A stretch of DNA of 13,797 nt, from the UHGV virus genome UHGV-0079647; one strand, 5' to 3'. This stretch comes from a virus. Below, piece by piece: positions 81-13,797 of this stretch; the stretch's first letter is position 1, and each line of letters opens with the position of its first letter. Below the pieces are notes generated by a model. It was given only the letters and a program-made list of their open reading frames with translations. It made no database searches and was not told the origin of the DNA. Position numbers and translations under genes: made by a program.

Positions 81-776
81 TTAATAAAGTAGTGAACCAA
101 GCAGACCGATACCAGCACCGATACCAGCACCCCACGGAGTTGATGAACCAATTAATTTCGCAAGTCCAGCCCCAGCAATGGCACCAGACGCACCTCCGCC
201 AATAGCAGATTGCATTGCTGATGGTCTGTTGGCGTTTGCCGCTGCAAGAGCCGCGCTTTGCTGTGAAATCTGACTCATGTTGTTGGCATATGTTTGCCCG
301 GCGTTTGCCTGACCTTGCAGTGCGCCAAGACCAATATTTGCCAGATTCTGGTAGTTGTTCATCTGACCAGATAGCCATTGCTGACCAAGCGTTGGTGCGA
401 TTGTTGCTAACTGATTACCGGTTGCAGTGGAACCCAATCCACCTGTTGCTTCCGCTGCAGCCAGACTCTGATAGCGAGCCTGACCAGCAAGATCTTTGTA
501 CTGCTGAGAGTTGTAATACTGGTTAAGTGCCTGACCTTGCCCTTCCAGAGACGATAAGTTCTCGAGGCTGCCGACATACTTATCAGCCAGAGGAGTAAAC
601 GGCTTCAGGTTGTTCATGATGGTGTTGAACTGCTGATTTTGCAGGTCTGCTGCATACTTCTGAGCTTCTGCGGCATACTTTGCGCTTTTATCAGAACTGC
701 CACCTTTCCCACCCTTTTCAGGGCAATAAGGTTCCTCGCCGCGCAGTTTTCTGCCCAGCTTAAATGCATATAACAT
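81..776 (-). CDS. Ejection protein gp7-like (231 aa)
   Basis: ORF with Q/N/A/G-rich low-complexity body and Gly/Ala-rich hydrophobic C-terminus; length close to P22 gp7 (229 aa as recalled) and correct synteny after the gp14-position gene. Start ATG lies 2 nt after the upstream gene's stop. Confidence 0.8.
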   Translation of the reverse strand: MLYAFKLGRKLRGEEPYCPEKGGKGGSSDKSAKYAAEAQKYAADLQNQQFNTIMNNLKPFTPLADKYVGSLENLSSLEGQGQALNQYYNSQQYKDLAGQARYQSLAAAEATGGLGSTATGNQLATIAPTLGQQWLSGQMNNYQNLANIGLGALQGQANAGQTYANNMSQISQQSAALAAANANRPSAMQSAIGGGASGAIAGAGLAKLIGSSTPWGAGIGAGIGLLGSLLY

Positions 777-778
777 GG

Positions 779-1234
779 CTATCTCCCGTGATTCAGGAAG
801 TCGATTAGTTCTTCGCGTGTGGCGCTGTAAAACGTCACGTCATCAACGCCTTTGAAGTATTTCTTGATGGTTCCTACACGCTTAAGGCCAATCATTGCGC
901 AGTACATCTGACCGTGGCGGAATTTGCGTGCAGCGAACGATGTGACGCACTGAACAGTGGTGTTAGTCAGAATGTATCGCCAGAACGCCAGCCCGATTTC
1001 CTTGCTGAAGCCGCGAATCTCTGGCAGGTACATGGCGTGGCAATCGAATGTCAGCGGCTGAATCTCCTGATAGTAAACAATGCCGCCGAACTGCCCGTGC
1101 ACGTTCACCTCAAAGTAACGGCAATCATGTTTGTAGTCGTATCCATCACCGTTGTTGCTCCCGGCAATAATGTCAGGGTGATTTCCGACTGCTTCGATCA
1201 GGTCGATGTTTCGCGTTGGTTTGAACTGAATCAT
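779..1234 (-). CDS. gp14-position protein (about 151 aa), function unclear
   Basis: ORF between the tail needle and gp7 genes, the slot occupied by gene 14 in P22. ATG at 1234..1232 overlaps the needle gene's TGA stop (TGATG); the ORF track begins one codon earlier at a GTG (1237). No motif recognised; assignment is by position. Confidence 0.6.
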   Translation of the reverse strand: MIQFKPTRNIDLIEAVGNHPDIIAGSNNGDGYDYKHDCRYFEVNVHGQFGGIVYYQEIQPLTFDCHAMYLPEIRGFSKEIGLAFWRYILTNTTVQCVTSFAARKFRHGQMYCAMIGLKRVGTIKKYFKGVDDVTFYSATREELIDFLNHGR

Positions 1235-2082
1235 CACTGCTCCGCAATGATTTTGATGGTTGTGGCAGTAAACGCCGCCCCATTTGACTGAATGGTTAAC
1301 GTACTGCCATTTGTGGCAAGAAAGCCGTCTTTATCCACGCTGAAGAACGTAGCTAACAGGATGTTGTCGGTTGTTGTCGCCGCATTACGACTGCTGACCA
1401 ACGTGTCAGGAACAGAGCCGGAAAAGGTTAGCTGCATTGACCTGTTGGCGGTTCCGCTGGGCCACGTGCCGACAATCGACAACTTGAAGAGCAGGGTTTT
1501 GTTCTCGTTGAACACAACCATCTTGTTGTTAACGGTGTCGAAGAATGGTGCCAACGAGCCTGATGACGGCGTGAGCGTTTTCAGCAGGCTAACAAGGTTG
1601 GTCGGCGCTGTCGGAATGGTTACTGATACGCCAGAGTAAACAACCTCTGACTTCTTGCGAGCAGTGGCATACTCCAGAGCATCGATGCGCGTTTCATGGT
1701 CTGAAACCTGCGACTCCAGCGACTGAACTCTGGTATCAAGCGACGCAATATCGCTTTCATTCTGAGTGATTCGTGTTTCATGTTCCTGAAGAGTTGATTC
1801 TGCCTGGCTGATTCGCTCCTCATGATTAACAAGCGTTGCTTCCGCAGCAGAAATTCTCTGCTCATGGTCAGCGAGAATCACATCCTGCTCATCATTCCTT
1901 ACCTGCGCGTCATAAGCGCCCTGTCCGGCCTCGTTGGCCTTATTCGCCACGTTACCAACATCAGTGCCCTGTGCGATAACGTACAGCAGATATGACTGCG
2001 AGAAGATATTGCGTGGAAGAACTGATGTATCGAGCCGTGTAGCCTGAATGATTACCGGCACATTGAGATTCGAATCAGCCAT
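1234..2082 (-). CDS. Tail needle protein, gp26-like, with extended C-terminal knob domain (282 aa)
   Basis: N-terminus [43 protein letters not shown] resembles the P22 gp26 N-terminal plug as recalled. Central region carries repeated H-E-x-R-I type coiled-coil units ([43 protein letters not shown]). C-terminal ~130 residues are Ser/Thr/Asn-rich and beta-like, unlike P22 gp26 (233 aa) but matching the length of Sf6/HK620-type knobbed needles. Start ATG overlaps the gp10 stop. Confidence 0.85.
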
Positions 2083-3500
2083 TACTCAATCCTTATCTGG
2101 CAGCCTGACAGAGTGACAGGTGACTTCGTGATAACGCGCAATTTGAAGCCGACATTTTTTCTGATGCGCCCTACTCGCTTCCACAAAACACGTTTGTCGT
2201 AAACGAACGGTTCATTCTGCTCAATCATCTGCTCACGCCCGTAATTGATGCCGTCAGTGGTTGCAGAGAGGAACAGGCGGTCGGCGTACTGAGCTACGCC
2301 AGTGGATGATTCCACCTCCAGATCGAAGCATCTGGCGTTATCCGCTTTGAACAGTGGAGTAAACAGCAGGTGTTCCTGTTGCTTGTCGTACTGGCTGCTG
2401 ATGTCGAATTGCAATTTCCCGGTCACGGATTCCAGCTTATCGCCGCACGTTATCTGATTGCCTTCGTAAATGAAATCGATAGCGCGGTACACATCGTCAT
2501 ACAGGTCTGTTTTCAGCACACACCATTGCGGACCATTGGCACTTGAAGATGCGTCGTACACGAGTACATGGCGCGGAAGGTGGATAATCAGCAGCTCATG
2601 AGCATCAAACCGCAGCGATTCCATCACACCATCAGCCAGTTCATCAGCAGTGTAGGAGCGGAGAATTTTCTCAATGCTCGCGCTGGCGATTGGTGACACC
2701 TGACCGGAGCCGATGATATATACAGACGGTGCACCTGTTGCCGGATTGCTGATGAAAGCATAGGAATCAGCAAACGGCGTTTTGCAGTAAGTCCCGGCGA
2801 TGCCTTTTTGCACCATCAGTGATGGCTGCGCGACATACAAAGCAGCACCAACGGTGGTTGCGCCAGTCAGGGAGAAATATTCAATAGTCGATGAACCAAA
2901 GCAGACGATGAAGTCTCGCCATGTTCCGATGCCGAGGATACCGTCCGGCTGCGATTCTGCGCGATATTGTGCGCTGTAACGGTCAGGATGCGATTCGTCT
3001 TCAAGGTCAGTGATAAACCATGAATCAGAGCCGTCTTTTGACCACGCATAACGCCCACGTAAGCGCGTAATGTCACGAACAGAACCTAACTCATACTGAG
3101 TGAATCCGCTGTCTGTAGGCCAGTTTGAGACGGTTTTAACCGTGCCATCATAACGATACTCGACCAGTTTCCCGTTAACGCCTACCGCCTGTGATGTCCG
3201 ACCATGCGCCATTGATACACGACCACTTCCGGCGACGTCACCGACTTCGCTTTCGCCTTTGTAGAGCTTGCCGCCACACACGCGATAAACAGCACTCTGC
3301 GCCATGTTGTACTCGACGCCTCGAGATATACCGTTCACATCAGAACGTTTGGCAATGCCCGGGAATGAGCGAAGATATCCGCTGCTGTTAAGGATTTCTT
3401 TGGGTGTAGCCAACATATTCACTGGTAGATAGTCGATATAGTCGGCATTTCGGAAGTCTTTGCCGACACCTTTCATGAGCGGAAGTTGCTGAATCGGCAT
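2082..3500 (-). CDS. Tail accessory / head completion protein gp10-like (472 aa)
   Basis: Same length as P22 gp10 (472 aa as recalled) and correct synteny between gp4 and the needle gene; start ATG overlaps the gp4 stop (TAATG). Confidence 0.85.
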
Positions 3501-4000
3501 TATTCGCTCCCGTTATCGCAAGGTTCCTTTCGGTGGAAGTAATTCCAACCGTTCCACTTCGCCAACTGGTTACCGCTACCAACAGGCATACGGTTTGGAT
3601 AACCGGACTTACATTTAGCGGCTTTTGCTCTGTCCATTGCAGACAGTTTGACGAGTCGCTCTTTCCCGTATCTGGCAGTGGTTATAAGTTTTGCAGGCGC
3701 TTCCAGCGCATAATCCGGTGCAATGCGGCAGGCAAGGTTGAAAATGACAGCATTGATAGCGTTATTTGATAAACCGTGCTCATCGCCCGGATCTGGAGCG
3801 ACATCTGCATCAGCGAAAATGTAGCCAACGTTGATACCAGGTGACACATCACCGCCAAGCCATTCAGCCATCATCATTTCAAGGTCGTTGACGCCGTCTT
3901 CCATAGACTGCGGTTCGACATCGGTTAACGTGGCATTTGATGCCACACCGAGCTTACGTAATGCCGCAAGAACTAAATCACCCTTCGTTGTCAGGTTCAT
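3500..4000 (-). CDS. Tail adaptor / head completion protein gp4-like (166 aa)
   Basis: Taken from the internal ATG at 4000..3998 ([33 protein letters not shown]...), which gives the 166-aa length of P22 gp4 and a similar N-terminal sequence as recalled. The 24 codons upstream in the ORF track overlap the preceding ORF and are probably not translated. Confidence 0.85.
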
Positions 4001-4577
4001 CTGCTGCCGCCTTAGGTTTTCGACCAGGCTTTTTACGCTGTTTTTCTTCTGGCTCTGACTCCGGCTCTGCAATAGCCGGACGCAAACTCAGGAGTCGTCC
4101 AAGAACATCATTTGCTTCATGACCATCCCACTCTTTCCCGAACTCAAGCTCAGTACCTTCAGGAAGGAACTCGATTTCTTCAACAGGTAGGTGATAAGTG
4201 ATTTCGCCTTCTGGAGTGGTGATACCAGCAATGATCCAGCCATCCCACTCTTCACCGTCACTGTGTTTGCGAGACCACCACGAAAGCTCAGCGTAAGCAT
4301 GCATCAGCGATGAGAAGAGTCGCACTCGGTGAGCGTAAAGCTCGTTAAAAGTGTGATAACCGTCGGACACTTCGCCCATATCAACTGGGGAAGTTTCACC
4401 TCCGCCAACACTCCCAATTTGATCACCAACAAGAGGATCATCAGGAACATCGTCAGGGTGCTTATACCAGCCATTTGCTAAGTGCACAGCTACATCATCA
4501 GGATCAACGGTTTTCGTTTTCAGCTTGCGTCCCCAGATTTTGGTATCTCCGCCAGCCTGAAAAATCATTACGCTCAT
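3978..4577 (-). CDS. Hypothetical accessory protein (199 aa) between coat and gp4; acidic, Trp-rich body with a Pro/Lys/Glu-rich C-terminal tail
   Basis: Start placed at ATG 4577..4575 ([15 protein letters not shown]...) because GGAGA sits 5 to 6 nt upstream and the longer 259-aa track ORF would run through the coat 3' end and the terminator hairpin. Ends with ...[29 protein letters not shown]. Overlaps the gp4 start by 23 nt in another frame. No domain recognised. Confidence 0.6.
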
Positions 4578-4590
4578 TGGTATCTCCAAT

Positions 4591-4612
4591 AGAAAAGGGA
4601 GCCGAAGCTCCC
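4591..4612 (-). terminator. Rho-independent terminator/attenuator hairpin immediately downstream of the coat gene
   Basis: On the minus strand: GGGAGC-UUCG-GCUCCC (perfect 6-bp GC-rich stem, UUCG tetraloop) followed by UUUUCU, 8 nt after the coat TGA stop and directly before the SD of the next ORF. Confidence 0.6.
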
Positions 4613-4620
4613 TCTGGTTA

Positions 4621-5916
4621 TCACGCGGTCTGGTTAGGCAGACCAACACCAATTGCCTCTGGTCGTACAGCACATGCTGAATACCACACAGCAATACGGC
4701 ACTTACCAGACAGAGTATTGATATCACCCTGCGTTGCGAAGATGCCGTTAACACCAATACCAGGAATGCTGAAGGAAGACGTTTTCATACCAGCAAACAG
4801 TTCATGGGTTACCGGGATCGGCTGAGACAGCAGACGGATTGAGTCATCAGCCCAGAACACGTTAGCGGTGGTTGTTGCCACGTTCAGAACGTTTACCGGA
4901 GTGGTATCAGCAAGAGAGGTGTTTACGTTAGCGTAAGCCTTCTCTTCTTTTGTCAGTGACGCGTCATCCAGTGCAATCGGCTTCGGCGTGATTTCGATGT
5001 GAGTACCATCGATCACACGGGTGATTGAGAAAGTCGCATCATCAGTCAGCACGTTCTTCGCCATCTGAGACAGGAATTTCACACCAGTGAAACTGATTTT
5101 GTCGCCGCGCTTAAATCCGGTGGTGGAGGATACGGTCACCGTTGCAACACGGTTGTCGACGTTCTCTTTGTTACCATCGGTATCAAGGGTGTATGCCTGC
5201 GGCTTAAACTTCTGCTCACCAGAAACAGTTACACCAGTAGCGGTTGACTTGGTAACTGCCGGAAGTTTCGGTGAGCGAAGAATTTCATCAAAGCCAGCAA
5301 TCTGACGCTGAATAGTACCGTTGCGATACGCTTCTTCAGGAACGCGCCCAAAGATGTCTCCATCTACCAGGTTGCGGCCTGCTTTGCGGTAATCGTCAGG
5401 GTTCAGGAAGTAACTGATGCCCATATCGCGGTTTAGCTCACGGGAGAACATCAGGCGCTCTGCATCAGACACAAAATCCCAGCCAGACAGGCCAGTAGAT
5501 GGACCAATTGCGCGGGTATCGTGAACAACAAGTGAGCCCATTTCGGTTGCCTGTTTGGCAATTGCTGACTCAATGTTATTCGCCAGTTTTTTGGCGGATG
5601 CCTGGATGCGGCGACGGTAAGAACGCTCATCACGCAGGTCATCTGCACGAAGCTCGAAGAAATCGTTATCCGGATCACCCATGTTGCATTTCACGGAGAG
5701 TTCCAGAATCCCAGTAGCTTTGCCAGTTAAATCCCAGCCAGTCTGAGTTGGCGCTTCCTGCTCAACAGGCATCCACACGGTGTTGCTTGAACGCTGCATG
5801 GATTCTGCCGGAGGGGTGTATTTTGTCACTTTGGACGCCATTGGCGTCAGGTTCTGGACGGTTTCGATGATTTCATCGATAGCGTAAGTAACTAACTGCC
5901 CTTCTTTGAGAGTCAT
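4621..5916 (-). CDS. Major capsid (coat) protein gp5-like (431 aa), HK97-fold coat of P22 type
   Basis: Length (P22 coat is 430 aa as recalled) and strong recalled similarity along the protein (e.g. ...[15 protein letters not shown]..., ...[20 protein letters not shown]..., ...[34 protein letters not shown]..., C-terminal ...[15 protein letters not shown]). Synteny after scaffold. Confidence 0.95.
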
Positions 5917-5942
5917 ATATTGAATACCTTACTTTCTTTATG

Positions 5943-5951
5943 TGCTATACT
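5943..5951 (+). promoter_or_regulatory. Candidate extended -10 promoter element (TGcTATACT) for the plus-strand HNH gene
   Basis: TGnTATACT-like motif in the AT-rich 67-bp spacer, about 33 to 40 nt upstream of the HNH start codons. No well-spaced -35 found (TTGAAT at 5920..5925 is 20 nt away). Sequence-only prediction. Confidence 0.25.
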
Positions 5952-5983
5952 ATTGTTATATCAACATATAGCGCATTAGGGTT

Positions 5984-6505
5984 ATGAGCATGGAACTGAA
6001 TGAATACTTCGAATACCGCGATGGTTCTTTGGTTTGGAAAGCCAGAAGCTCTGAATTTTTCAACAACAAAAAGAATCGCAACTATCACAACGTTTGGAAT
6101 GCAAAACACGCTGGGAAAGTTGCTGGTCTTTTAGAAAGCAATGGATATATCCGCATAAGAATTAACGGCATTAAGTGGCTAGCACACCGCATCGTATGGG
6201 TAATGTTTAACGGAGATATTCCAGAAGGCATGGAAATTGACCATATAAATGGGATTCGCCACGACAACAGAATTGAAAATCTTCGTCTTGTGAAAAAATC
6301 AGCAAACCAAAGGAATAGAATCAAACTATCTAAAAATAACTCCAGCGGAATATCTGGAGTTTACTTTTGCAACACGCGGAAAAGATGGATCGCGCATAAG
6401 CGACTGCTTAATGCAAGAGTGCAAAAAGTATGTTCTTCATTCGAAGAGGCGAAAGAAGTAATCAGAAAGTTTGACGAGGAAAACAACATCACGATATCGA
6501 AATAA
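5984..6505 (+). CDS. HNH-family homing-endonuclease-like protein (HNH_3 type core with an AP2-like C-terminal DNA-binding region), about 171 to 173 aa
   Basis: Only convincing plus-strand gene. Contains HRIVWVMFNGDIPEGMEIDHINGIRHDNRIENLRLVKKSANQRN, matching the His-Asn-His core and conserved Asn of HNH_3 endonucleases, followed by SGISGVYFCNTRKRWIAHK, an AP2-like motif. Gene is visibly AT-rich with AGA/ATA codons, unlike its flanks. Start may be the second ATG at 5990 (AGGG lies 8 nt upstream of it). Confidence 0.85.
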   Translation: MSMELNEYFEYRDGSLVWKARSSEFFNNKKNRNYHNVWNAKHAGKVAGLLESNGYIRIRINGIKWLAHRIVWVMFNGDIPEGMEIDHINGIRHDNRIENLRLVKKSANQRNRIKLSKNNSSGISGVYFCNTRKRWIAHKRLLNARVQKVCSSFEEAKEVIRKFDEENNITISK

Positions 6506-7417
6506 TTATCGAATTCCTTTATTCAGTTGCGCCTTGAGCTTGCGGTACGTCTCTACATCCCCTTTGTTTGCTGCCGCCTCCATCTGCTTTTCAATCGCAG
6601 AGATATTTGCAGCAACAGCGTGTCCCTGAATGGGTTCATCAGGTAGCGGGGCTTCTGAAACAGGTTTGGCTCGAGGCTTGAGAGTTAAACGTTCTGACAG
6701 TCGAGTGAGTTCAATCAACGCGGATTGCCCGTCCATCGCCAGCAACTGGCGTGTTTTTTCAGGATTAGCACCAAGGTGATACATGAGAGCAGCGGATTTC
6801 TCCGGGAAGAGGCGCATGATGTCGGCACCGACTGCTGGCGGCACCAGTTGCATGAATGCATCCTCTTTCTCCTGATAGTCAGGGATATTGAGCTTTTCCG
6901 CTGCGTCGTAGTGCTTACGGGCTGCCTCGACGTATTGCGCTGATTGCTGGGTGAACTCCTGAGTTTTGCGACCCTGCTCGGCGACAGCCTGGCTTCGTGC
7001 GTCCATAGCCTTGATCTGCCATTCACTGTTTGCCTGCTGGAAGGCAGCCAGTGCGCGGCTCTGGTCATAGTCGTACTTAGCCAGTGCATCTTCGGAAAGA
7101 TAATCGTTAGGGTCTGGTTGTTTTGGTAACTCAGGGTTCACCCGCAGGTGCTCCGGCAACTCTCCACGCTTAACCGCTTCCATCTGCTGCTCAAGCTCAC
7201 GCTGGCGTTTGCGTTCGATGCGGCGACGGGCAAATTCAGCATTAGTTGCCGGGTCTTGTTTTGGTTTCTCATCGTCTTTCAGGACAATCTCGAAGCCTTC
7301 TTCCTGACCTGCGTTGTCGTTGGCATTATCGACAACTAAGCCATCAGCAGATGCCGCTGCATGATTGCCGGGCATGGTTAATTCTTCAGAAGCCTGAATG
7401 TCGGTGGTTTGGTCCAT
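6506..7417 (-). CDS. Scaffolding protein gp8-like (303 aa)
   Basis: Same length as P22 gp8 (303 aa as recalled); charged, helical, Glu/Lys/Arg/Gln-rich sequence; recalled similarity including the C-terminal coat-binding helix-turn-helix (...[17 protein letters not shown]). Synteny between portal and coat. Confidence 0.9.
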
Positions 7418-7430
7418 GGTTAACTCTCTC

Positions 7431-9596
7431 TTATTGAGGTGTCTCGGCTACTCCGCCGGAGGGGATTTGAACTTGACGCATAAGATTCGCGAAATCCATG
7501 CGTTGTGAATGAGTCTGGTCTGCATCTTTAAGAAGCAGCTCAGCGTTAGCACGAGCATCTTTGCTGCGCTGTTGCTGGAATTGACCTACGAGCTTGAGGT
7601 ACTCACGCAGTTCTGCCTGCTTGTCGAGGTCCATATTGTTGAAGATTTCCGCAATCTTCGCGGCGTTGAGTTGGTTTTGGGCTTCAACCTTGGCGGCTTC
7701 AACCTGAATCTGCGCCTGTTGGTTCTCTGCCTTGAGCAATTCAGCCTGACCTTGCAGAAGGATACCCTGCGCCTGAATTTGCTCTGCTGATGGCTGCTGC
7801 GGCTGCTGTTGAGCCTGCTGTACCATCTCCATCTCTTCAGGTGTTTCTGGTTTCTTCAGCCCCATCATCACCAGTTGCTTGTTCGCGTACTCTCGCATCA
7901 TCTCGACGCCTTTACCGTCAAGCAGCGTGAAGTATTGCAGCATCAGCATCTGGAACTCTGGAGTACCTTGTGGAACCTTGGTGAGTAACTCCTGAATCTC
8001 TGCGCGGTTCTGTTCCTTCATACTCTGGAAGGATGGTCCAACGTCTGTATAGCACTCATAGCGACCGCGAATGTCGTTGAGTGTGACCACATTGCCGGAC
8101 TGGTAATCTACAACTTGCGCGTAGAGTTGAACGTCTTTCTCGCTTCCGTCTTCAAGAGTCAGCGTTACATGGCGAGGAACGTCATAAATATCGTTGACCA
8201 TTGAGGCATAAATCTCGCCATCACGTCGCATTGCGGTAGCCAGGTTATCCTGAAACACGTATGTCTCAAGGTCTGCCCGCATGTTCAGTTGATTGACGGT
8301 ATCGAAAGCGACCTGACCATTTGCCGCCTGCGCATCCACGCCAAGACTAGCTACCTCTTTCACTGCGTTGGTGGCAGCCTCAAGCATGTAAGCGTTGGCT
8401 TGCGGCACTTCAGGGTTTTCCATGTAGGAGATTGGACCAATCGGCAGGTCGTTACCGTTTTCATCGGTCTTGTTCTGCAGATAGTACGGATAGTCATCAT
8501 TTCCTCCGTACATGTATTCGTAGCCTTCGATTTGCTCAGGGAAGAAGGTCGGTTTCTTCTTCGGTGAACGAGCAACGATATCGGCGTTGAATGACATGAT
8601 CATGTTACGAAGGCGTTGACCGTCTTTCGTCAGCCTTACCACTCCTTCGTAGCACTCCTTGTCACCAGCGAATGACCATTCGCCGTACACTGGAACGATT
8701 GGGATATGCTCTCCAGCTATCTTCTCGCGGTCTTTCAGTATCTGCGTGCAGGTGATGATCGACTTATACACACGCCGACGCTTGACCTTACGCTCTGCTA
8801 CCTTAATGAATCCACGATTAGCCAGGTCGTCGATGACGTCTTTGATATCCTGCTGGAAATAGCTGACCGGCTCACCTGTCAGCGGGTCGCGGTAGATGAA
8901 GACTTTCTCCTTCTTCTCTTCTACCTCGTAATACTCAGCGACGTAGACGACATCATTCGATACCCACGGAAACAGCCATGTATCGTTCGGATTCTGGAAA
9001 GATGGCAAGGTATCCGGATCAATACCGTAATCCTCTGCGAACTCTTTCCAGCCATTGCGTGACAAAGCGTTAATCACCGTGCAGTGCTTAGCGTCGCTCT
9101 TATCCATCTGCTTGCTGTTGGCGTCCCATATGACGTGTGAGCAGGCTTCATGAATTGGCAGGCGTCGAATTACCTGATTGTTGCTTGTTGGATCGTTGTC
9201 TTCGTACTGCGTGACCAGACGCCATGCACCAACGCCGGACTCTATCTGCTCACGAACGCCAACGTTAACGGCAATTTTTGCCGTGTTATGGCGCATATCA
9301 GTACGATACATCCCCATCAGCACATCGGCAGCATCAGGATTAGCGCCGTCTTTGGGTCGGAAGAGAACGTCGATAGGGTTCCGGCGCATCTCTGCGACCA
9401 GTTTCCTGACCACCGGGCGAACAACATCGAATTGTCCACGATATTGCAGGGTGGTGTAGTTTGATAGCCAGTCATCCCATTGCGACACTCGGCTAAAATA
9501 CAGGTCATTTGTCGCCTCGGTTCTGGCTTCATCGCTCGCCATCCAGTCCGCGTCAAACTTACACAGAATGGAATTGAGTCTGTTTTCGTCGGCCAT
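7431..9596 (-). CDS. Portal protein gp1-like (721 aa)
   Basis: Strong recalled similarity to P22 portal over the whole length ([38 protein letters not shown]..., ...[33 protein letters not shown]...), including the long Gln-rich C-terminal helical barrel. Start ATG immediately follows the terL stop (TAAATG). Confidence 0.95.
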
Positions 9597-11096
9597 TTAA
9601 GTTCTCCGTGCGATGGGCCTGATTGGGGCTGGTATCTTTTTCTCTTTTGGTTTTTTGATGTCGCGCATCATTTTTGCGAAGCGGCGCATCATGTATGCAT
9701 AGCGAACGGCGGAGAGAACGTCATCGTTAAGCTTGACGATTTTCCCGTTTTCATCACGGTGATAGAGGCGGAACTCCTCAAAGAATGGCTCACAGGTGTT
9801 GAATACTTTGAAGCGGCCATCAAGCATCATGTCGCGCAATTCAGTGATTCCAGGCTCAACAGCATTACCGCCATCAGGCCATGTCGCATGCTCCTGCAAC
9901 ATCATAAAACCAGCGTCGGCATACTGCCCTTTGAGCTGCTCACCGCCGCCCTTCTCATGCTGGTTTCCGTCATGAGGCCATGCGGTTGGCACTTTATGCG
10001 CCCATGATTTAACGGCTCCCCACGCCTGAACGGCTGTTTTTTCTTTCGCCTTCCACACGCGTGAAACGTAGATTATGTCTGCGTCCTTATCCCACCAAAG
10101 CTGAACCTGCGCCTGAGGGTGATCCCATCCGAAATCCATCCCGCCAATTACGTAGAAGTGATCAGGACACTCGAACGGCTGACACTTAATCGTCTCTTCC
10201 GGTATCTGGAAGATTCGACCACTACCCATCGTAGGAATACCGCGAGCACGCGCCTCTCTCTCATGCTCGGGATAGGATGCGATGATTTGCTCTTTCTGCT
10301 CTTCGGTATAGTGCTCAGCGTCATAGATGGTCATGTTGACCACTTTCTGCGACTTGCTGGGGTTCTTCAGGAACTTGGTAACAACGTCAGACATCCCCAT
10401 CAGCGGGGTAAACGTCAGAATTGAGAATTGCCCGTATTTGTTGGTACGGGTAAGGCCTTCGCCATAAATGCTGTATGGTGGCTCTTCGTCAAACCACACG
10501 CCGTGGATTGTGTCACCCTGCCAGCGAGCACGGCCTTGCGAGTATGGCTTGAAGTAGCAGATTGAAATGCCATCTTCAACGCCATCAGCCGTGTGATGCT
10601 TAACCAGAAGATGATCAACAAGGTTCGGAAAGAAAGGAGACTTCTTCCAGCTAATGATGTCTTCTTTCGGTATGGAACCGTAGCCAGGCTCATCATTCTC
10701 TTCGATACGACCGCACAGGATGCGTTGAGTCGTTTTGGTTACAGTCTCGTTTGTCTCGCCACCAATCCAGAAGACAACAGGCTCATAGAAACGCTTACCT
10801 TTCCACTCACCGCCATATTTACCATCAGCAGGATAGCCTTTTGTGCCCGGATAACGCCCTGTAAGGTGAAACGCGACTTCAGCAGCACCAGTAAATGACT
10901 TACCAAGCTGGTTACCAGCCATAAAACATCGCTCTGGGTAGTCATGTCCGGCGTCGATGAACTCACGCTGTTTGCTGTATGGCGTAAATTCATATAGCAG
11001 GTGTGTGTTCCGGTAGTTCTCTTCTTCTTCGAGTAGCTCGAGCAATTCGATTTGCTCTTCGTCGCTCAGGTTATCAAGAATCGCGTCCAGTTCCAC
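9597..11096 (-). CDS. terL: Terminase large subunit gp2-like (499 aa)
   Basis: Same length as P22 gp2 (499 aa as recalled); deviant Walker A-like segment (...[17 protein letters not shown]...) near the N-terminus as in phage large terminases; synteny between terS and portal. Start overlaps the terS 3' end by 23 nt. Confidence 0.95.
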
Positions 11097-11562
11097 GGTT
11101 GAATAGCTCCTTGATACGAGAGCGTCGCTTATCGCGATCTCCCTTATCAGGTGTCACGTCTTCAACTTGCGACTGCTCTTTGAGGCCCAAATCACGGGCG
11201 ATGATGTTAGCGTTGAGAAGGTCAGCGGCTGCGCCAGAGAATTTCTGATCGTAGATGATGTCTTCCGCTCGTGATGTGACGTCAGAAAAACCTTCCATTG
11301 ACCGGAAGGTTCCCCATGTTTGCCTGGTGATATCAAGGAAGGTACACAATCCTGAAATAGTCATGGCTCGCATCTTAGGGACATTAGCCTTAATTATTTC
11401 TCCCTGATATGAAAATACCTTACCCTCCCATAGTGGGTTATCATCAGCCCACTCGAAGTATTCACAACAAGCAGCCCACAGCGCCTCAGGCGATTCGAAT
11501 TTAGGATTTCGCCCATGACTACTGCGGGCCTCCCAAAATCGGTTGCCCTTTGGTGCTGCCAT
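11074..11562 (-). CDS. terS: Terminase small subunit gp3-like (162 aa from the second ATG)
   Basis: Synteny directly upstream of terL; length equals P22 gp3 (162 aa as recalled) when started at [17 protein letters not shown]...; GTGAG lies 6 nt upstream of that ATG. The ORF track starts two codons earlier at 11568 (MNM...). Confidence 0.85.
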
Positions 11563-11585
11563 ATTCATCTCACTTAGTTGTTATT

Positions 11586-11766: not shown

Positions 11767-12009
11767 TCATGCTCCGGTGGTGAACAGGTCTAACGCTTCC
11801 TTCGATTTACGCACCGCTTCAAATGTGCGGATCGTGATATCCGAATTAGCGCCGCCTGATTGGAAGTGAATTTTGAATAGCTCAAGCTTCAACTCGTCAG
11901 TGCCGATGAATTGAAATGCTTCTTCTGCGGCTGCGTTCTGGTTCATGACCAGCTTGTAAATCTCTAACTGGAATTTCTGTTCTTCAGTCATGGGAATAAT
12001 CTCTGCCAT
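11767..12009 (-). CDS. Hypothetical small phage protein (80 aa)
   Basis: ORF with GGAG 6 nt upstream of the ATG (aacGGAGccaacaATG), lying in the lysis-to-terS accessory region. No motif recognised. Confidence 0.55.
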   Translation of the reverse strand: MAEIIPMTEEQKFQLEIYKLVMNQNAAAEEAFQFIGTDELKLELFKIHFQSGGANSDITIRTFEAVRKSKEALDLFTTGA

Positions 12010-12112: not shown

Positions 12113-12493
12113 CTACTGTTCGCTTAGCTTCTGCTTCAGCAAGTAACCTTCGAGCATCCAGATTTTGTTTACAGCATTTTGCCGGGCAATCTTCCGACCA
12201 ATTTCTGCATCAAAGTTTTCCGGGCTTGCACAGGCACTCTCTCCGGTGACGGTGAAGCCATTCTTCAGCACCAGCACGCAGAAAGTGAGCAACTTCAATG
12301 GTGATAAATCACGATCGCCTTCTTCTGGTTTTTCTCTGCCACAATATTCGTTGCTGGAAATGGCACCATTACGTCCATCATAAGCAGTAAAGTAATGCTC
12401 GCTTTTAATCACGTCTTCGATGTGATGAGGAGTGATTCGCGGGGATGTTTTGCCTTTCTCAACGATTTCTTTTTCGATTTGCTGGTCGTTCAT
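12113..12493 (-). CDS. Hypothetical phage protein (126 aa), possibly of the N4 gp49 / Sf6 gp66-like family
   Basis: Clean ORF with AGGGT upstream of the start. Family guess is based on position (Sf6 gene 66 sits just upstream of terS) and on recalled resemblance only; unverified. Confidence 0.5.
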   Translation of the reverse strand: MNDQQIEKEIVEKGKTSPRITPHHIEDVIKSEHYFTAYDGRNGAISSNEYCGREKPEEGDRDLSPLKLLTFCVLVLKNGFTVTGESACASPENFDAEIGRKIARQNAVNKIWMLEGYLLKQKLSEQ

Positions 12494-12651: not shown

Positions 12652-13194
12652 TTAATTGGTGAGTCCGGGGATTACGGTTTGCCCGTGCTGTTCAAGGCGT
12701 TCAATTCTCGCCAGTAGCTGAGGCTTCTTAATTTTTCCCCAGCGATTAAGCAGGCGGCCTGACATGCTGGCAACATCCTTCTCTTTCATGTACTCCAGCA
12801 TTACGGCATTTCTCTCTTCTTCAAATTGACGATGACCAACCTGAAGCATGGCGTACATCCAGTTGAATGCGTTGATGTAAGCAATTTTGATACGCATTGC
12901 TTCTTTTTTGGTGTAGGACATAACCAAAAGCATCAACCCATCCTTACGTAGCCGATAGAATTTTTGTGGCTTACCATTCTGTAACTCATTGTTTTTATAG
13001 CAAACCTCAAAATTGAGTTTTGTATCAAACTCTTCAGGACAAGCAGCGATAGTTCTTTCTACATCACGCACAACGTTGTCATGTCGCTTACGAAATGCTT
13101 TCGCCACCATAAATGAATCGGTGACAGGGTCATTGTTGGTAATAAAAACCAGTTCTTTGAAATCAATGCCGTCAACGATAGTTGGATAATTCAT
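12652..13194 (-). CDS. Rha-family phage regulatory protein (180 aa)
   Basis: N-terminal region ...FITNNDPVTDSFMVAKAFRKRHDNVVRDVERTI... matches the Rha-domain consensus core (...iA..fgK.H.nVlRdi...). Location between lysis genes and terS is where rha lies in P22. Confidence 0.75.
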   Translation of the reverse strand: MNYPTIVDGIDFKELVFITNNDPVTDSFMVAKAFRKRHDNVVRDVERTIAACPEEFDTKLNFEVCYKNNELQNGKPQKFYRLRKDGLMLLVMSYTKKEAMRIKIAYINAFNWMYAMLQVGHRQFEEERNAVMLEYMKEKDVASMSGRLLNRWGKIKKPQLLARIERLEQHGQTVIPGLTN

Positions 13195-13396: not shown

Positions 13397-13797
13397 TTAT
13401 TTCAGGCACTGAGTCCTGATGTATTCCTGCAGGTAGTTAACCTGCGCGGTTATCCTGTCGATTCCACTTCGGAGACGGTAATAATTGAGTTCAGCATCTG
13501 CTGTAAGTCTTGGGCTTTCTCCATCGCCCATGCCGCTGGCTCCGGTCGTTGACTTTGCACAGGTGGCGGCGACTTGCAGGCGCTTACGCCCAGCAGAAAC
13601 ATCATCACGGAGACTTTCGATAGTCGCGTTAGCATCAGCAAGCTCCTTTGTATATCTGGCGTCGAGTTCTGCTACGTCACGTTGACGCTTCTGCATGTCA
13701 GCGATGATGGATGTGGCTTTGTCGCGCTGGGCTTTGTAGGCGATGGCGTTATCACGGTAATGATTAACAGCCCATGACAGGCAGACGATGATGCAGA
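13397..13797 (-). CDS. Rz: Rz i-spanin (lysis protein), 5'-truncated by the window edge
   Basis: Reading frame is open from the window end; hand translation of 13797..13697 gives ...[55 protein letters not shown]..., closely resembling lambda Rz as recalled (N-terminal TM segment and periplasmic coiled coil). The track ORF (13397..13696) is only its C-terminal part. Confidence 0.9.
13450..13641 (-). CDS. Rz1: Rz1 o-spanin (outer-membrane lipoprotein), embedded in the +1 frame of Rz
   Basis: 63-aa ORF wholly inside Rz in another frame: hydrophobic signal-like N-terminus ending in a lipobox-like L-G-V-S-A-C, then a Pro-rich stretch ([16 protein letters not shown]), the hallmark arrangement of lambda-type Rz1. 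Confidence 0.8.

Follow-up and report, generated by a model that had tools for sequence, protein, structure and literature searches.

The gene between the coat protein gene and gene 4 of P22-like phages has been catalogued since the papers on P22, phage L and epsilon34. Compared with long forms such as epsilon34 gene 6, the homologues from P22 and Scho1 are internally deleted, and the role of these proteins is unknown (PMC2629481). The P22 gene was reported to be non-essential (PMC2629481, citing Eppler 1991), and the term used for phage L orf186 is 'function unknown' (PMC8022706). Our literature search returned nothing on the function of P22 orf69, and the coat/gene 4 slot is not mentioned in the main text of the accessory-gene screens of Silas et al. 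The long forms of Salmonella phages (phage L orf186, ST64T, ST104 orf54, g341c and epsilon34 gene 6) share a layout of N-terminal domain, WDGH domain (Pfam PF25311), linker and basic/acidic tail, the last of which overlaps gene 4. The short forms are P22 orf69 (69 aa; NC_002371, 6135-6344, 210 nt) and the E. coli alleles of 76-88 aa (IME10, Bas106, and the ws5-3 prophage), all without WDGH. In Sf6 (gene 6), HK620 (hkbT) and APSE, the same slot after the coat terminator is taken by another type of small protein, also without WDGH.

In the window, by which we mean the whole analysed stretch of 13,797 nt, this slot holds an ORF of 199 aa on the minus strand, with its ATG at 4577 and its TGA at 3980-3978 (Table 1). 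Translation reproduced exactly the extent that a sequence-only reading had given for an extra ORF between coat and gene 4, and the tail letters quoted there were correct. In a 98%-identical E. coli C4 prophage, the counterpart of the upstream coat gene carries the PGAP name 'P22 phage major capsid protein family protein'. The hairpin between the two genes is positioned just past the coat stop codon, and the 61-nt segment around it (4570-4630) folds with -20.9 kcal/mol (z = -2.76). A simple terminator scan did not list it and the call rests on direct folding; the corresponding element goes by stem_loop in the P22 annotation, terminator in that of phage L and t coat in that of Sf6. The location of the ORF downstream of the coat terminator, noticed earlier from the letters, is correct. 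The promoter scan detected nothing sigma-70-like in the interval from the coat gene to the ORF, and no terminator follows the ORF, which overlaps gene 4, so that the gene has neither the promoter nor the terminator of its own that would mark a moron. Transcripts of the gene would start at the late promoter and read through the coat hairpin, and translation would begin at the Shine-Dalgarno sequence of the ORF itself, 6 nt before the ATG.

Table 1 Features in and around the coat/gene 4 slot of the window
Feature	Position	Strand	Basis
Coat protein gene (P22 gp5 type, 431 aa)	4621..5916	-	ORF list; directly upstream of the 199-aa ORF, late operon
Coat-gene hairpin (t-coat)	4594..4615	-	9-bp GC-rich stem AGAGGGAGC/GCUCCCUUU, UUCG loop
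U-rich tract UUUUCUAUU after coat hairpin	4586-4593	-	Sequence reading
Shine-Dalgarno GGAG of the 199-aa ORF	4584..4587	-	Read from sequence
199-aa ORF, long allele of the P22 orf69 / phage L orf186 / epsilon34 gene 6 family	3978..4577	-	phrog_3769, tblastn, selection
orf69-type N-terminal domain, aa 1-46	4440..4577	-	phrog_1175, alignment, AF2
Variable low-confidence linker, aa 47-66	4380..4439	-	pLDDT <50 at aa 47-61; poor conservation; pN 0.51
WDGH domain (Pfam PF25311), aa 68-165	4083..4376	-	Pfam; AF2; conserved columns
Acidic Glu/Pro-rich linker, then basic patch	4015..4082	-	Alignment with ws5-3 short allele
Gene 4 Shine-Dalgarno region TAAGGCGG within Lys-Ala tail codons	4007..4014	-	Cross-phage comparison
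Gene 4 (head-tail adaptor / packaged-DNA stabilisation protein, 166 aa)	3500..4000	-	Pfam P22_Tail-4, E 5e-58; PGAP
23-nt overlap of the ORF and gene 4 (codons ...ADEPDNEG* vs MNLTTKG...)	3978..4000	-	Sequence; PGAP coordinates in E. coli C4

The sequence-only reading had proposed a remote homology search, a structure prediction and a comparison of the slot across P22-like genomes, all of which were carried out here. The ORF matched phrog_3769 over its full length (E 1e-100), and PF25311 was hit with 134.8 bits (cut-off 27; E 1.4e-39) over model positions 1-97 of 97. Its 199-codon frame is unbroken in three other E. coli prophages. The ORF is a real gene, far beyond a chance ORF, because of these Pfam and phrog matches, the purifying selection described below and the intact frame in relatives. 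Pseudogenisation, which the shorter PGAP models of 133 and 108 aa had brought up, was rejected because the full frame is intact in the genomes with these models. It is near certain that the gene is the WDGH-bearing long allele of the orf69/orf186 family. The earlier description of the ORF as uncharacterised stands.

The protein is a chain of modules, made up of an orf69 N-domain of ~45 aa, an inserted WDGH domain of ~100 aa, a flexible Glu/Pro linker and a basic-then-acidic tail. It is acidic (pI 4.65) and rich in Trp, as had been described, with five of its seven Trp residues inside the WDGH domain. The N-domain matched phrog_1175 (aa 1-44, E 2e-14) and was predicted by AF2 to fold as a beta-hairpin plus a helix (pLDDT ~84) with a GW..HP motif; G8, G15, G35, W36, H39 and P40 are invariant in the alignment of the 199-aa ORF, P22 orf69, L orf186 and the short E. 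coli alleles. A search with this domain gave 392 clusters, and the best-scoring among the matches listed were Enterobacterales proteins of 65-80 aa. The WDGH domain, modelled alone, reached a pLDDT of 95.3 and contains the motifs SDGYHTFxELYxHR, WWS.KH.DG and WDGH, the last as W150-D151-G152-H153 (numbering with Met1). In the same numbering, S71, D72, G73, H75, T76, F77, E79, L80, Y81, H83 and R84 fit near-invariant columns of 150 diverse WDGH representatives. The copy number of (EP)n in the linker differs between alleles, and the basic patch of the 199-aa ORF reads K-K-P-G-R-K-P-K. A canonical AT-hook (core R-G-R-P with basic flanks) was looked for in this patch and PGRKP was found instead; AT-hook-like KRGRPTKV or KKRGRPAKV is present in some homologues, and KKQRKGK or KKPRKNK in many alleles.

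Slot genes were present in all P22-like genomes examined, in long, short and Sf6-type forms. The close relatives recovered by tblastn were phage L orf186, ST64T, ST104 orf54, g341c gene 6, BTP1 and Emek, with 59-63% identity over aa 1-167. Compared with the Salmonella long forms, the allele in the window is an E. coli one with another linker and a longer tail (overlap with gene 4 of 23 nt vs 17 nt), and it is, unlike them, associated with an Sf6-type needle knob and a nearby HNH insertion. P22 had been described as having no gene here, which is incorrect, as orf69 occupies the slot and shares homology with the 199-aa ORF in N-domain and tail. P22 orf69 and the short E. coli alleles share the N-domain invariants (G, G, GW, HP), the Glu/Pro linker, a GRKPKA-type patch, the acidic end and the overlap with the gp4 Shine-Dalgarno sequence and start, with N-domains 26-38% identical to that of the 199-aa ORF. 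The statement that Sf6-type phages carry an ORF in this slot was correct for the position, but not for the kinship: the Sf6 type has a KRGRK patch, overlaps the gp4 homologue by 26 nt and uses the same TAAGGCGG Shine-Dalgarno sequence, while the N-domain profile had no detectable homology to Sf6 gp6 (hhalign probability 1.4%). A tblastn search with Sf6 gp6 recovered Sf6, HK620, APSE and Vibrio phages, and the orf69/orf186 phages were not recovered. What the 199-aa ORF has in common with all of these is its place after the coat hairpin and a 3' end that runs across the Shine-Dalgarno sequence and start of gene 4.

The start codon of gp4 is the ATG at 4000-3998, and the last 8 codons of the 199-aa ORF overlap its N-terminus. 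The gp4 Shine-Dalgarno sequence TAAGG (4010-4014) is placed inside the tail codons, which agrees with the overlap noticed before. The octamer TAAGGCGG occurs once in the whole window; there and in P22, phage L and Sf6 it precedes the gp4 ATG by 8-9 nt, and the slot gene overlaps gene 4 by 17-26 nt across four lineages, the non-homologous Sf6 gene 6 included. In the comparison with phage L orf186, pS was 0.60 in the tail vs ~0.9 elsewhere. The tail, singled out earlier as unusual, is indeed charged, but its sequence is largely dictated by the translation-initiation region of gene 4: much of the oddity arises because the region doubles as Shine-Dalgarno sequence and start of that gene. The tail also travels with the gp4 module, and this simple explanation accounts for mis-annotations such as the extended gp4 of IME10 and the inconsistent PGAP start codons.

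Translation of the ORF would end 23 nt inside gene 4, after crossing the gene 4 Shine-Dalgarno sequence, and because of this anatomy the two genes are probably translationally coupled. One could go further and regard the ORF as a translational leader for gene 4, which carries ribosomes across the coat hairpin and whose protein is incidental. This would account for the conserved overlap with its TAAGGCGG site, for the fewer synonymous changes in the tail and for a mosaic boundary (see below) that keeps the tail with the gp4 module. We regard it as very unlikely, given that 146 codons far upstream of the overlap are under strong purifying selection, that WDGH is predicted to fold autonomously (pLDDT 95) and is conserved over thousands of clusters, and that 600 nt are needless where P22 manages with 210 nt. 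Coupling may add a role but cannot explain the 199-aa protein. The selection itself was estimated against phage L orf186, where synonymous sites are saturated (pS 0.88-0.94) and pN reaches 0.16 for WDGH and 0.30 for the N-domain, giving pN/pS of ~0.17 and ~0.33, respectively; these ratios indicate that the ORF is under strong purifying selection.

The modularity shows in the E. coli ws5-3 prophage, in which coat and gp4 are ~98-100% identical to those of the window. Between them, a short allele that lacks WDGH and has another N-domain takes the place of the stretch from 4577 to ~4050: identity collapses over this stretch and is back to 100% from ~4031. This places the right-hand mosaic boundary at ~4030-4080, in the region of the acidic linker and basic patch. 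Judged by this alignment, the N-domain plus WDGH block behaves as an exchangeable cassette between late operons that are otherwise ~98% identical. Among the roles suggested by the sequence-only reading, an accessory, moron-like one is the best supported, with the qualification that the variable part is the N-domain plus WDGH cassette and not the whole gene.

Such exchanges bear on the idea that the slot protein is a head-assembly or DNA-packaging factor, with the orf69 core acting together with coat, portal or gp4 and WDGH as a passenger. In phage lambda, gpFI is encoded between the major capsid and head-completion genes, has folded ends with a flexible, charged linker between them, and is required for efficient packaging; it offers a positional analogue. 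A small ORF sits in the exact slot in P22, phage L, IME10, Bas106, Sf6, HK620 and APSE phages, and these ORFs overlap the gp4 start and end with a KRGRK-like patch even where the N-domains are non-homologous. However, N-domains only 33-38% identical are swapped between operons with ~98% identical coat and gp4, and therefore do not co-vary with their presumed partners. The likeness to gpFI is positional only, as no lambda FI-type domain was found in the 199-aa ORF with Pfam at E up to 1, and WDGH is also found in early regions and in phages whose heads are unrelated. Together with the reported dispensability of the P22 gene (PMC2629481, citing Eppler 1991), these points make a packaging role unlikely.

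A minor virion, internal or ejected protein, packaged with the DNA (e.g., via the basic tail) and with WDGH acting at the start of infection, was another option. Here, the location in the virion module, the basic RGRK or RGRP-like motif in part of the family (reminiscent of minor-groove AT-hooks), and a Streptococcus phage whose WDGH gene is part of the head module, flanked by the portal and minor head protein genes, could be read in its favour, while most WDGH genes lie in early regions, the motif of the 199-aa ORF is PGRKP rather than RGRP, many alleles have no GR at all, and the tail sequence is constrained by the initiation signals of gene 4. We know of no published virion inventory of P22, L or Sf6 that lists the slot protein. 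Neither proteomic nor structural evidence of a virion, decoration or ejected role, as had been suggested earlier, was found, and the ORF showed neither the OB-fold Dec homology nor the capsid presence of a phage L Dec-type decoration protein. The T4 proteins Ip1-3, which are injected anti-restriction proteins (PMC12373910), provide a precedent for such delivery, but we consider a virion or ejected role very unlikely for this gene.

The WDGH family itself comprises 3657 clusters at 50% identity and was found in phages of Listeria, Bacillus, Streptococcus, Lactococcus and Klebsiella, mostly in arrays of small early genes; its place in large lytic phages is likewise among early genes. Most PF25311 members have WDGH alone or with other N- or C-terminal extensions, unlike the 199-aa ORF, and within the family search P22-like (pro)phages of Enterobacterales showed the combination of an orf69 scaffold and WDGH beside a coat gene. 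In 150 diverse representatives, WDGH was accompanied by 10 Pfam families in 17 family matches, 11 of which were to anti-defence families (six Sequestin (PF21825), three Lar, one Tad2-like and one Acb2/Tad1 hairpin). The ten longest representatives had no extra Pfam domains. It was fusions to Tad2 and Acb4 that led to the discovery of Sequestin as a Thoeris sponge (bioRxiv 10.1101/2025.07.12.664507), and the fusion or adjacency of WDGH to anti-defence families is the same kind of evidence. For instance, one phage with a P22-type portal encodes a Tad2-WDGH-Sequestin fusion between its lysis genes and its terminase, and in another neighbourhood a WDGH-Sequestin gene lies directly 3' of a Tad2-like gene. 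Elsewhere, an Acb2/Tad1-hairpin gene comes directly after a WDGH gene, another WDGH gene is found directly behind a Tad2-like gene, and the late operon of the window also has an Acb4-family gene (PF13876). The anti-defence proteins Tad2, Sequestin, Acb2/Tad1, Acb4 and Acb5, which sequester or cleave signals, are, like the 199-aa gene, small, phage-borne, patchy and non-essential, but WDGH has no sequence or fold similarity to them. Searches with the 199-aa ORF itself gave only PF25311 in Pfam at E up to 1 (no Tad2 PF11195, Sequestin, Acb2/Tad1 or Acb4), no match in PADLOC and NCBIfam, nothing below E 0.7 in the PDB sequence search, and only WDGH proteins with Foldseek against BFVD. No function was reported for 'WDGH' or PF25311 in the searched literature.

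The conserved residues could also belong to a metal-dependent hydrolase or binding domain that serves phage nucleotide or nucleic-acid metabolism or host takeover, not immune evasion. Near-invariant His74, His82, Arg83, His104, Asp106, His128, Asp150 and His152 (Met1 not counted) together with Trp/Tyr residues would suit such a site, one of the 150 representatives is fused to an RNase_T-type exonuclease, and the early position in large lytic phages would fit as well. Against this, WDGH had no similarity to known hydrolase folds or families, its identifiable partners and neighbours are predominantly anti-defence families, and the gene is dispensable and patchy among near-identical prophages, so that we assign this reading a low probability. 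A 2H-phosphoesterase interpretation of the His motifs was rejected because they read H-T-F and H-L-P, and not H-x-T/S-x.

The explanation that we favour, with a confidence that falls a little short of even, is that the gene is a long orf69/orf186-family allele encoding a non-essential accessory protein of the late operon, with WDGH as a candidate counter-defence module; this estimate covers the explanation as a whole, counter-defence role included. WDGH would be the functional payload, being widespread, phage-borne, predicted to fold autonomously, and provided with a conserved cluster of His, Asp, Arg, Trp and Tyr. From its associations we infer that it most likely acts in counter-defence, its target being either a small immune signal of nucleotide type, which it would bind or cleave, or a defence protein that it would block, and that it would do so in the cytoplasm late in infection, beside the Acb4-family gene product of the phage. 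More tentatively, PF25311 as a whole may be an unrecognised family of phage counter-defence domains, directed most plausibly against Thoeris/CBASS-type nucleotide signalling, which in P22-like phages would have been grafted into the orf69 scaffold, giving some prophages a swappable immune-evasion cassette by the coat gene, possibly delivered with the DNA; we hold this to be possible rather than probable.

The gene itself is ordinary, an E. coli prophage allele of a long-catalogued slot gene, and WDGH is already a Pfam domain and named by RefSeq; new is the candidate functional lead. The domain deserves attention for its more than 3600 clusters, the lack of a solved structural relative and the Sequestin-like signature of fusions and adjacencies. 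Of 5426 complete E. coli genomes, 373 have this late region and 43 the long allele, and long and short alleles in prophages ~98% identical around the locus constitute a natural, ready-made comparison.

On its minus strand the window carries the late operon of an E. coli prophage of P22-like (Lederbergvirus) type (see the table); positions 3400-6600 are 98% identical to a prophage in E. coli C4. The ORF between the coat gene and gene 4 (the slot gene) runs from an ATG at 4577, with a GGAG Shine-Dalgarno (SD) sequence 6 nt upstream, to a TGA at 3980-3978 (minus strand). Its translation reproduced the 199-aa protein of the sequence-only reading, charged tail included, and the described acidic, Trp-rich character was borne out by a pI of 4.65 and 7 Trp. 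As that reading had proposed, the ORF lies downstream of the coat terminator: a hairpin with a 9-bp GC-rich stem, UUCG loop and U-tract (61-nt region, -20.9 kcal/mol, z -2.8) stands between the coat stop codon and the SD. It was not flagged by a crude terminator scan; in the annotations of P22, phage L and Sf6 its equivalents appear as a stem-loop, a terminator and t-coat, respectively. A scan of the coat-to-ORF interval found no sigma-70-like site.

Features of the window and neighbourhoods of WDGH genes in other genomes
Locus	Feature	Position	Strand	Remarks
Window	Rz	13397-13696	-	
Window	Rha-like gene	12652-13194	-	
Window	PF13876 gene	12113-12493	-	126 aa, Phage_gp49_66 (N4 gp49 / Sf6 gene 66), Pfam E 8e-35
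Window	DUF2560	11767-12009	-	
Window	small terminase	11074-11568	-	
Window	large terminase	9597-11096	-	
Window	portal	7431-9596	-	
Window	scaffold	6506-7417	-	
Window	HNH gene	5984-6505	+	173 aa, HNH_3 Pfam E 4e-22; PADLOC 'homing endonuclease' models
Window	coat	4621-5916	-	
Window	slot gene	3978-4577	-	199 aa
Window	gp4	3500-4000	-	
Window	gp10	2082-3500	-	
Window	needle with Sf6-type knob	1234-2082	-	gp26 homologue, 282 aa; knob PF16532 E 3e-115
Window	gp14	779-1237	-	
Window	gp7	81-776	-	
L015	Tad2-WDGH-Sequestin tri-domain gene			between lysis genes and terminase, phage with P22-type portal
L016	WDGH-Sequestin gene			directly 3' of Tad2-like gene
L017	WDGH gene, then immediately Acb2/Tad1-hairpin gene			Tad2-Sequestin gene 3 kb upstream
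L018	WDGH gene			directly 3' of Tad2-like gene

Matches to Pfam PF25311 (the WDGH domain, E 1.4e-39) and phrog_3769 (E 1e-100), together with saturated pS (0.88-0.94) and low pN (0.16 in the WDGH part, 0.30 in the orf69-type N-terminal domain, aa 1-46) against phage L orf186, leave no doubt, at the level of sequence comparison, that the ORF is coding. The corresponding 199-aa ORF of E. coli C4 is a PGAP 'hypothetical protein' (WP_000115359.1), and RefSeq/PGAP elsewhere name the same ORF 'WDGH domain-containing protein'. The 199-codon frame was unbroken in all three E. coli genomes checked despite inconsistent PGAP starts; the lengths called for the intact ORF were 108 (locus L012, 3274-3600), 133 (L013, 3199-3600) and 199 aa (L001, 6580-7179).

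Comparison of the slot across P22-like genomes, a check proposed earlier, returned homologues in P22 and, by tblastn, in the Salmonella phages L (Orf186), ST64T, ST104 (orf54), g341c (gene 6), SE1, BTP1 and Emek, the tblastn matches being 59-63% identical over aa 1-167. Contrary to the earlier premise, P22 does have a gene in this position: orf69 (6135-6344) fills the slot, flanked by the coat stem-loop on one side and gene 4 on the other, and the protein it encodes can be aligned to the target over the first 45 residues and over the tail. Sf6 does carry a slot gene, as the sequence-only reading stated (gene 6, 61 aa; HK620 hkbT family, also in APSE and some Vibrio phages), but its product has no detectable homology to the target (hhalign probability 1.4%). 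The phage L genome paper gives orf186 as 'detailed function unknown' (PMC8022706); epsilon34 gene 6 homologues vary in length, with large internal deletions in the P22 and Scho1 versions (PMC2629481), and the P22 gene was reported non-essential in 1991 work, as cited there. Versions of 76-88 aa occur in E. coli phages IME10, Bas106 CurroJimenez, Dewey, Louie and HZ41 and in many prophages; their N-domain is related but only 33-38% identical to the target, they share the target's tail exactly and also have an (EP)n repeat. An N-domain profile search recovered 392 protein clusters; those listed with the best scores are for the most part Enterobacterales proteins of 65-80 aa, and none of the clusters listed has a Pfam assignment. 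The target is near certainly the long allele, with WDGH, in the orf69/orf186 family; as a gene it is real, under selection and non-essential, an accessory gene from a family already known. In IME10 (locus L003, NC_019501; 2278-2592, 2465-3070) the short slot gene lacks annotation, and the annotated gp4 begins 35 codons further upstream; this N-terminal extension (MLQSQSQSQSQ...) translates the (EP)n repeat in a different frame, and the start is probably mis-called.

The protein is modular in AF2 models, with a beta-hairpin plus helix (N-domain, aa 1-46, pLDDT about 84), a disordered linker (aa 47-66), the WDGH domain (aa 68-165, pLDDT about 96; 95.3 as a domain-only model), and a disordered Glu/Pro-rich linker leading to the basic-acidic tail. 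Against the prophage of E. coli ws5-3, nucleotide identity is 98-100% across the coat gene to about 4582, drops exactly at the ORF start, stays low to about 4050, within the Glu/Pro linker, and resumes at 100% from about 4031 through gene 4. This pattern indicates that the N-domain and WDGH are exchangeable as a cassette and that the tail is part of the gene 4 module. Of 5426 complete E. coli genomes, 43 have the long allele and 373 have this late-region type. The Glu-Pro repeat (window ~4040-4075; loci L002, L003 and L004; P0251-P0370) varies from 1 to about 8 copies across alleles, sits at the right-hand mosaic boundary of the cassette, and may be a recombination or slippage hot spot.

That tail coding overlaps the gp4 start and SD was confirmed: the gene 4 ATG (4000-3998) gives a 23-nt overlap, and the octamer TAAGGCGG (4007-4014), which precedes the gp4 ATG by 8-9 nt in the window, P22, phage L and Sf6, is read by the slot gene as Lys-Ala. 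The last 6-8 slot-gene codons overlap the conserved gp4 N-terminus. The tail motif '...KPKA...D...' is invariant in the alignment, and tail pS is 0.60 vs about 0.9 elsewhere; both are accounted for largely by the overlap in coding with the translation-initiation region of gene 4, because TAAGGCGG and the gp4 N-terminus share these codons. The tail described as unusual is present and is mostly a footprint of that region. A protein-level role (e.g., DNA binding) is possible, though unnecessary to account for the conservation. A canonical AT-hook was rejected, since the target allele reads PGRKP; RGRP occurs in a few homologues, and KKQRKGK or KKPRKNK in many. The octamer and its spacing are common to P22-, L- and Sf6-type late operons (L010, L011, L014), and are kept despite non-homologous upstream slot genes and very divergent coat proteins. 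The arrangement strongly suggests that gp4 is translationally coupled to the slot gene, which could alternatively be a mere translational leader for gp4.

WDGH forms 3657 clusters at 50% identity (E 1e-3 or better) and occurs in phages of Listeria, Bacillus, Streptococcus, Lactococcus, Staphylococcus, Klebsiella, Arthrobacter and cyanobacteria. Small early genes surround it in Listeria LMTA-148, Bacillus Tsamsa and Klebsiella SopranoGao; in a pneumococcal phage it is flanked by the portal and minor head protein genes. For the slot gene, alternative readings are a slot-bound helper in assembly or packaging, or a packaged or ejected protein. Its nearly invariant residues (S, D, G, H, T, F, E, L, Y, H, R / W, S, H, D, G / G, Y, H / W, D, G, H / R) suggest a catalytic or ligand-binding site, and a metabolic hydrolase is a further alternative.

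Among 150 diverse WDGH representatives scanned with Pfam, most had no identifiable partner; the others gave 17 matches to 10 partner families, namely Sequestin / crAss001_48 (PF21825; 6), Lar restriction-alleviation (3), Tad2-like, Acb2/Tad1 hairpin and YodL (1 each), the exonuclease / RNase H-type RNase_T, Rv2179c-like and RNase_H_2 (1 each, possibly the same protein), and two zinc-ribbon models (1 each). Eleven of these matches fall in families whose names denote anti-defence functions. PF21825 is a type I Thoeris sponge, discovered via Tad2 and Acb4 fusions, and PF13876 is the Acb4 anti-CBASS sponge family (bioRxiv 10.1101/2025.07.12.664507). Five neighbourhoods were looked up, the supportive ones (see the table) being picked from Enterobacterales matches and apparently alike in flanking-gene organisation, so not independent; around the WDGH gene of L019 no known anti-defence neighbour was found. 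In L016 (5071-5952), L017 (1031-2122 and 5523-5846) and L018 (4108-4953), Tad2-like (sometimes Sequestin-fused), WDGH and Acb2/Tad1-hairpin genes cluster in one direction as an apparent anti-defence island. These loci are metagenome/SRA contigs, about 21-53 kb long, that seem to derive from phages. The window's own late operon holds a PF13876 gene between the Rha-like gene and DUF2560/terminase, so a late-operon site is normal for such genes in this phage type. The best-supported mechanism for WDGH would be a counter-defence module, to which we give close to an even chance; interference with nucleotide signals specifically is a more tentative proposal.

The HNH_3 gene, on the opposite strand, is inserted exactly between scaffold stop and coat start. 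It was found in E. coli C4 and ws5-3 and is missing from IME10, Bas106, LD67-1 and VTB97584v, where scaffold and coat directly adjoin; it resembles the insertion of a free-standing homing endonuclease. The needle knob is of Sf6 type, yet coat, portal and gp4 belong to the phage IME10 type (genus Lederbergvirus), a mismatch that is a mosaic junction inside the head-completion genes.
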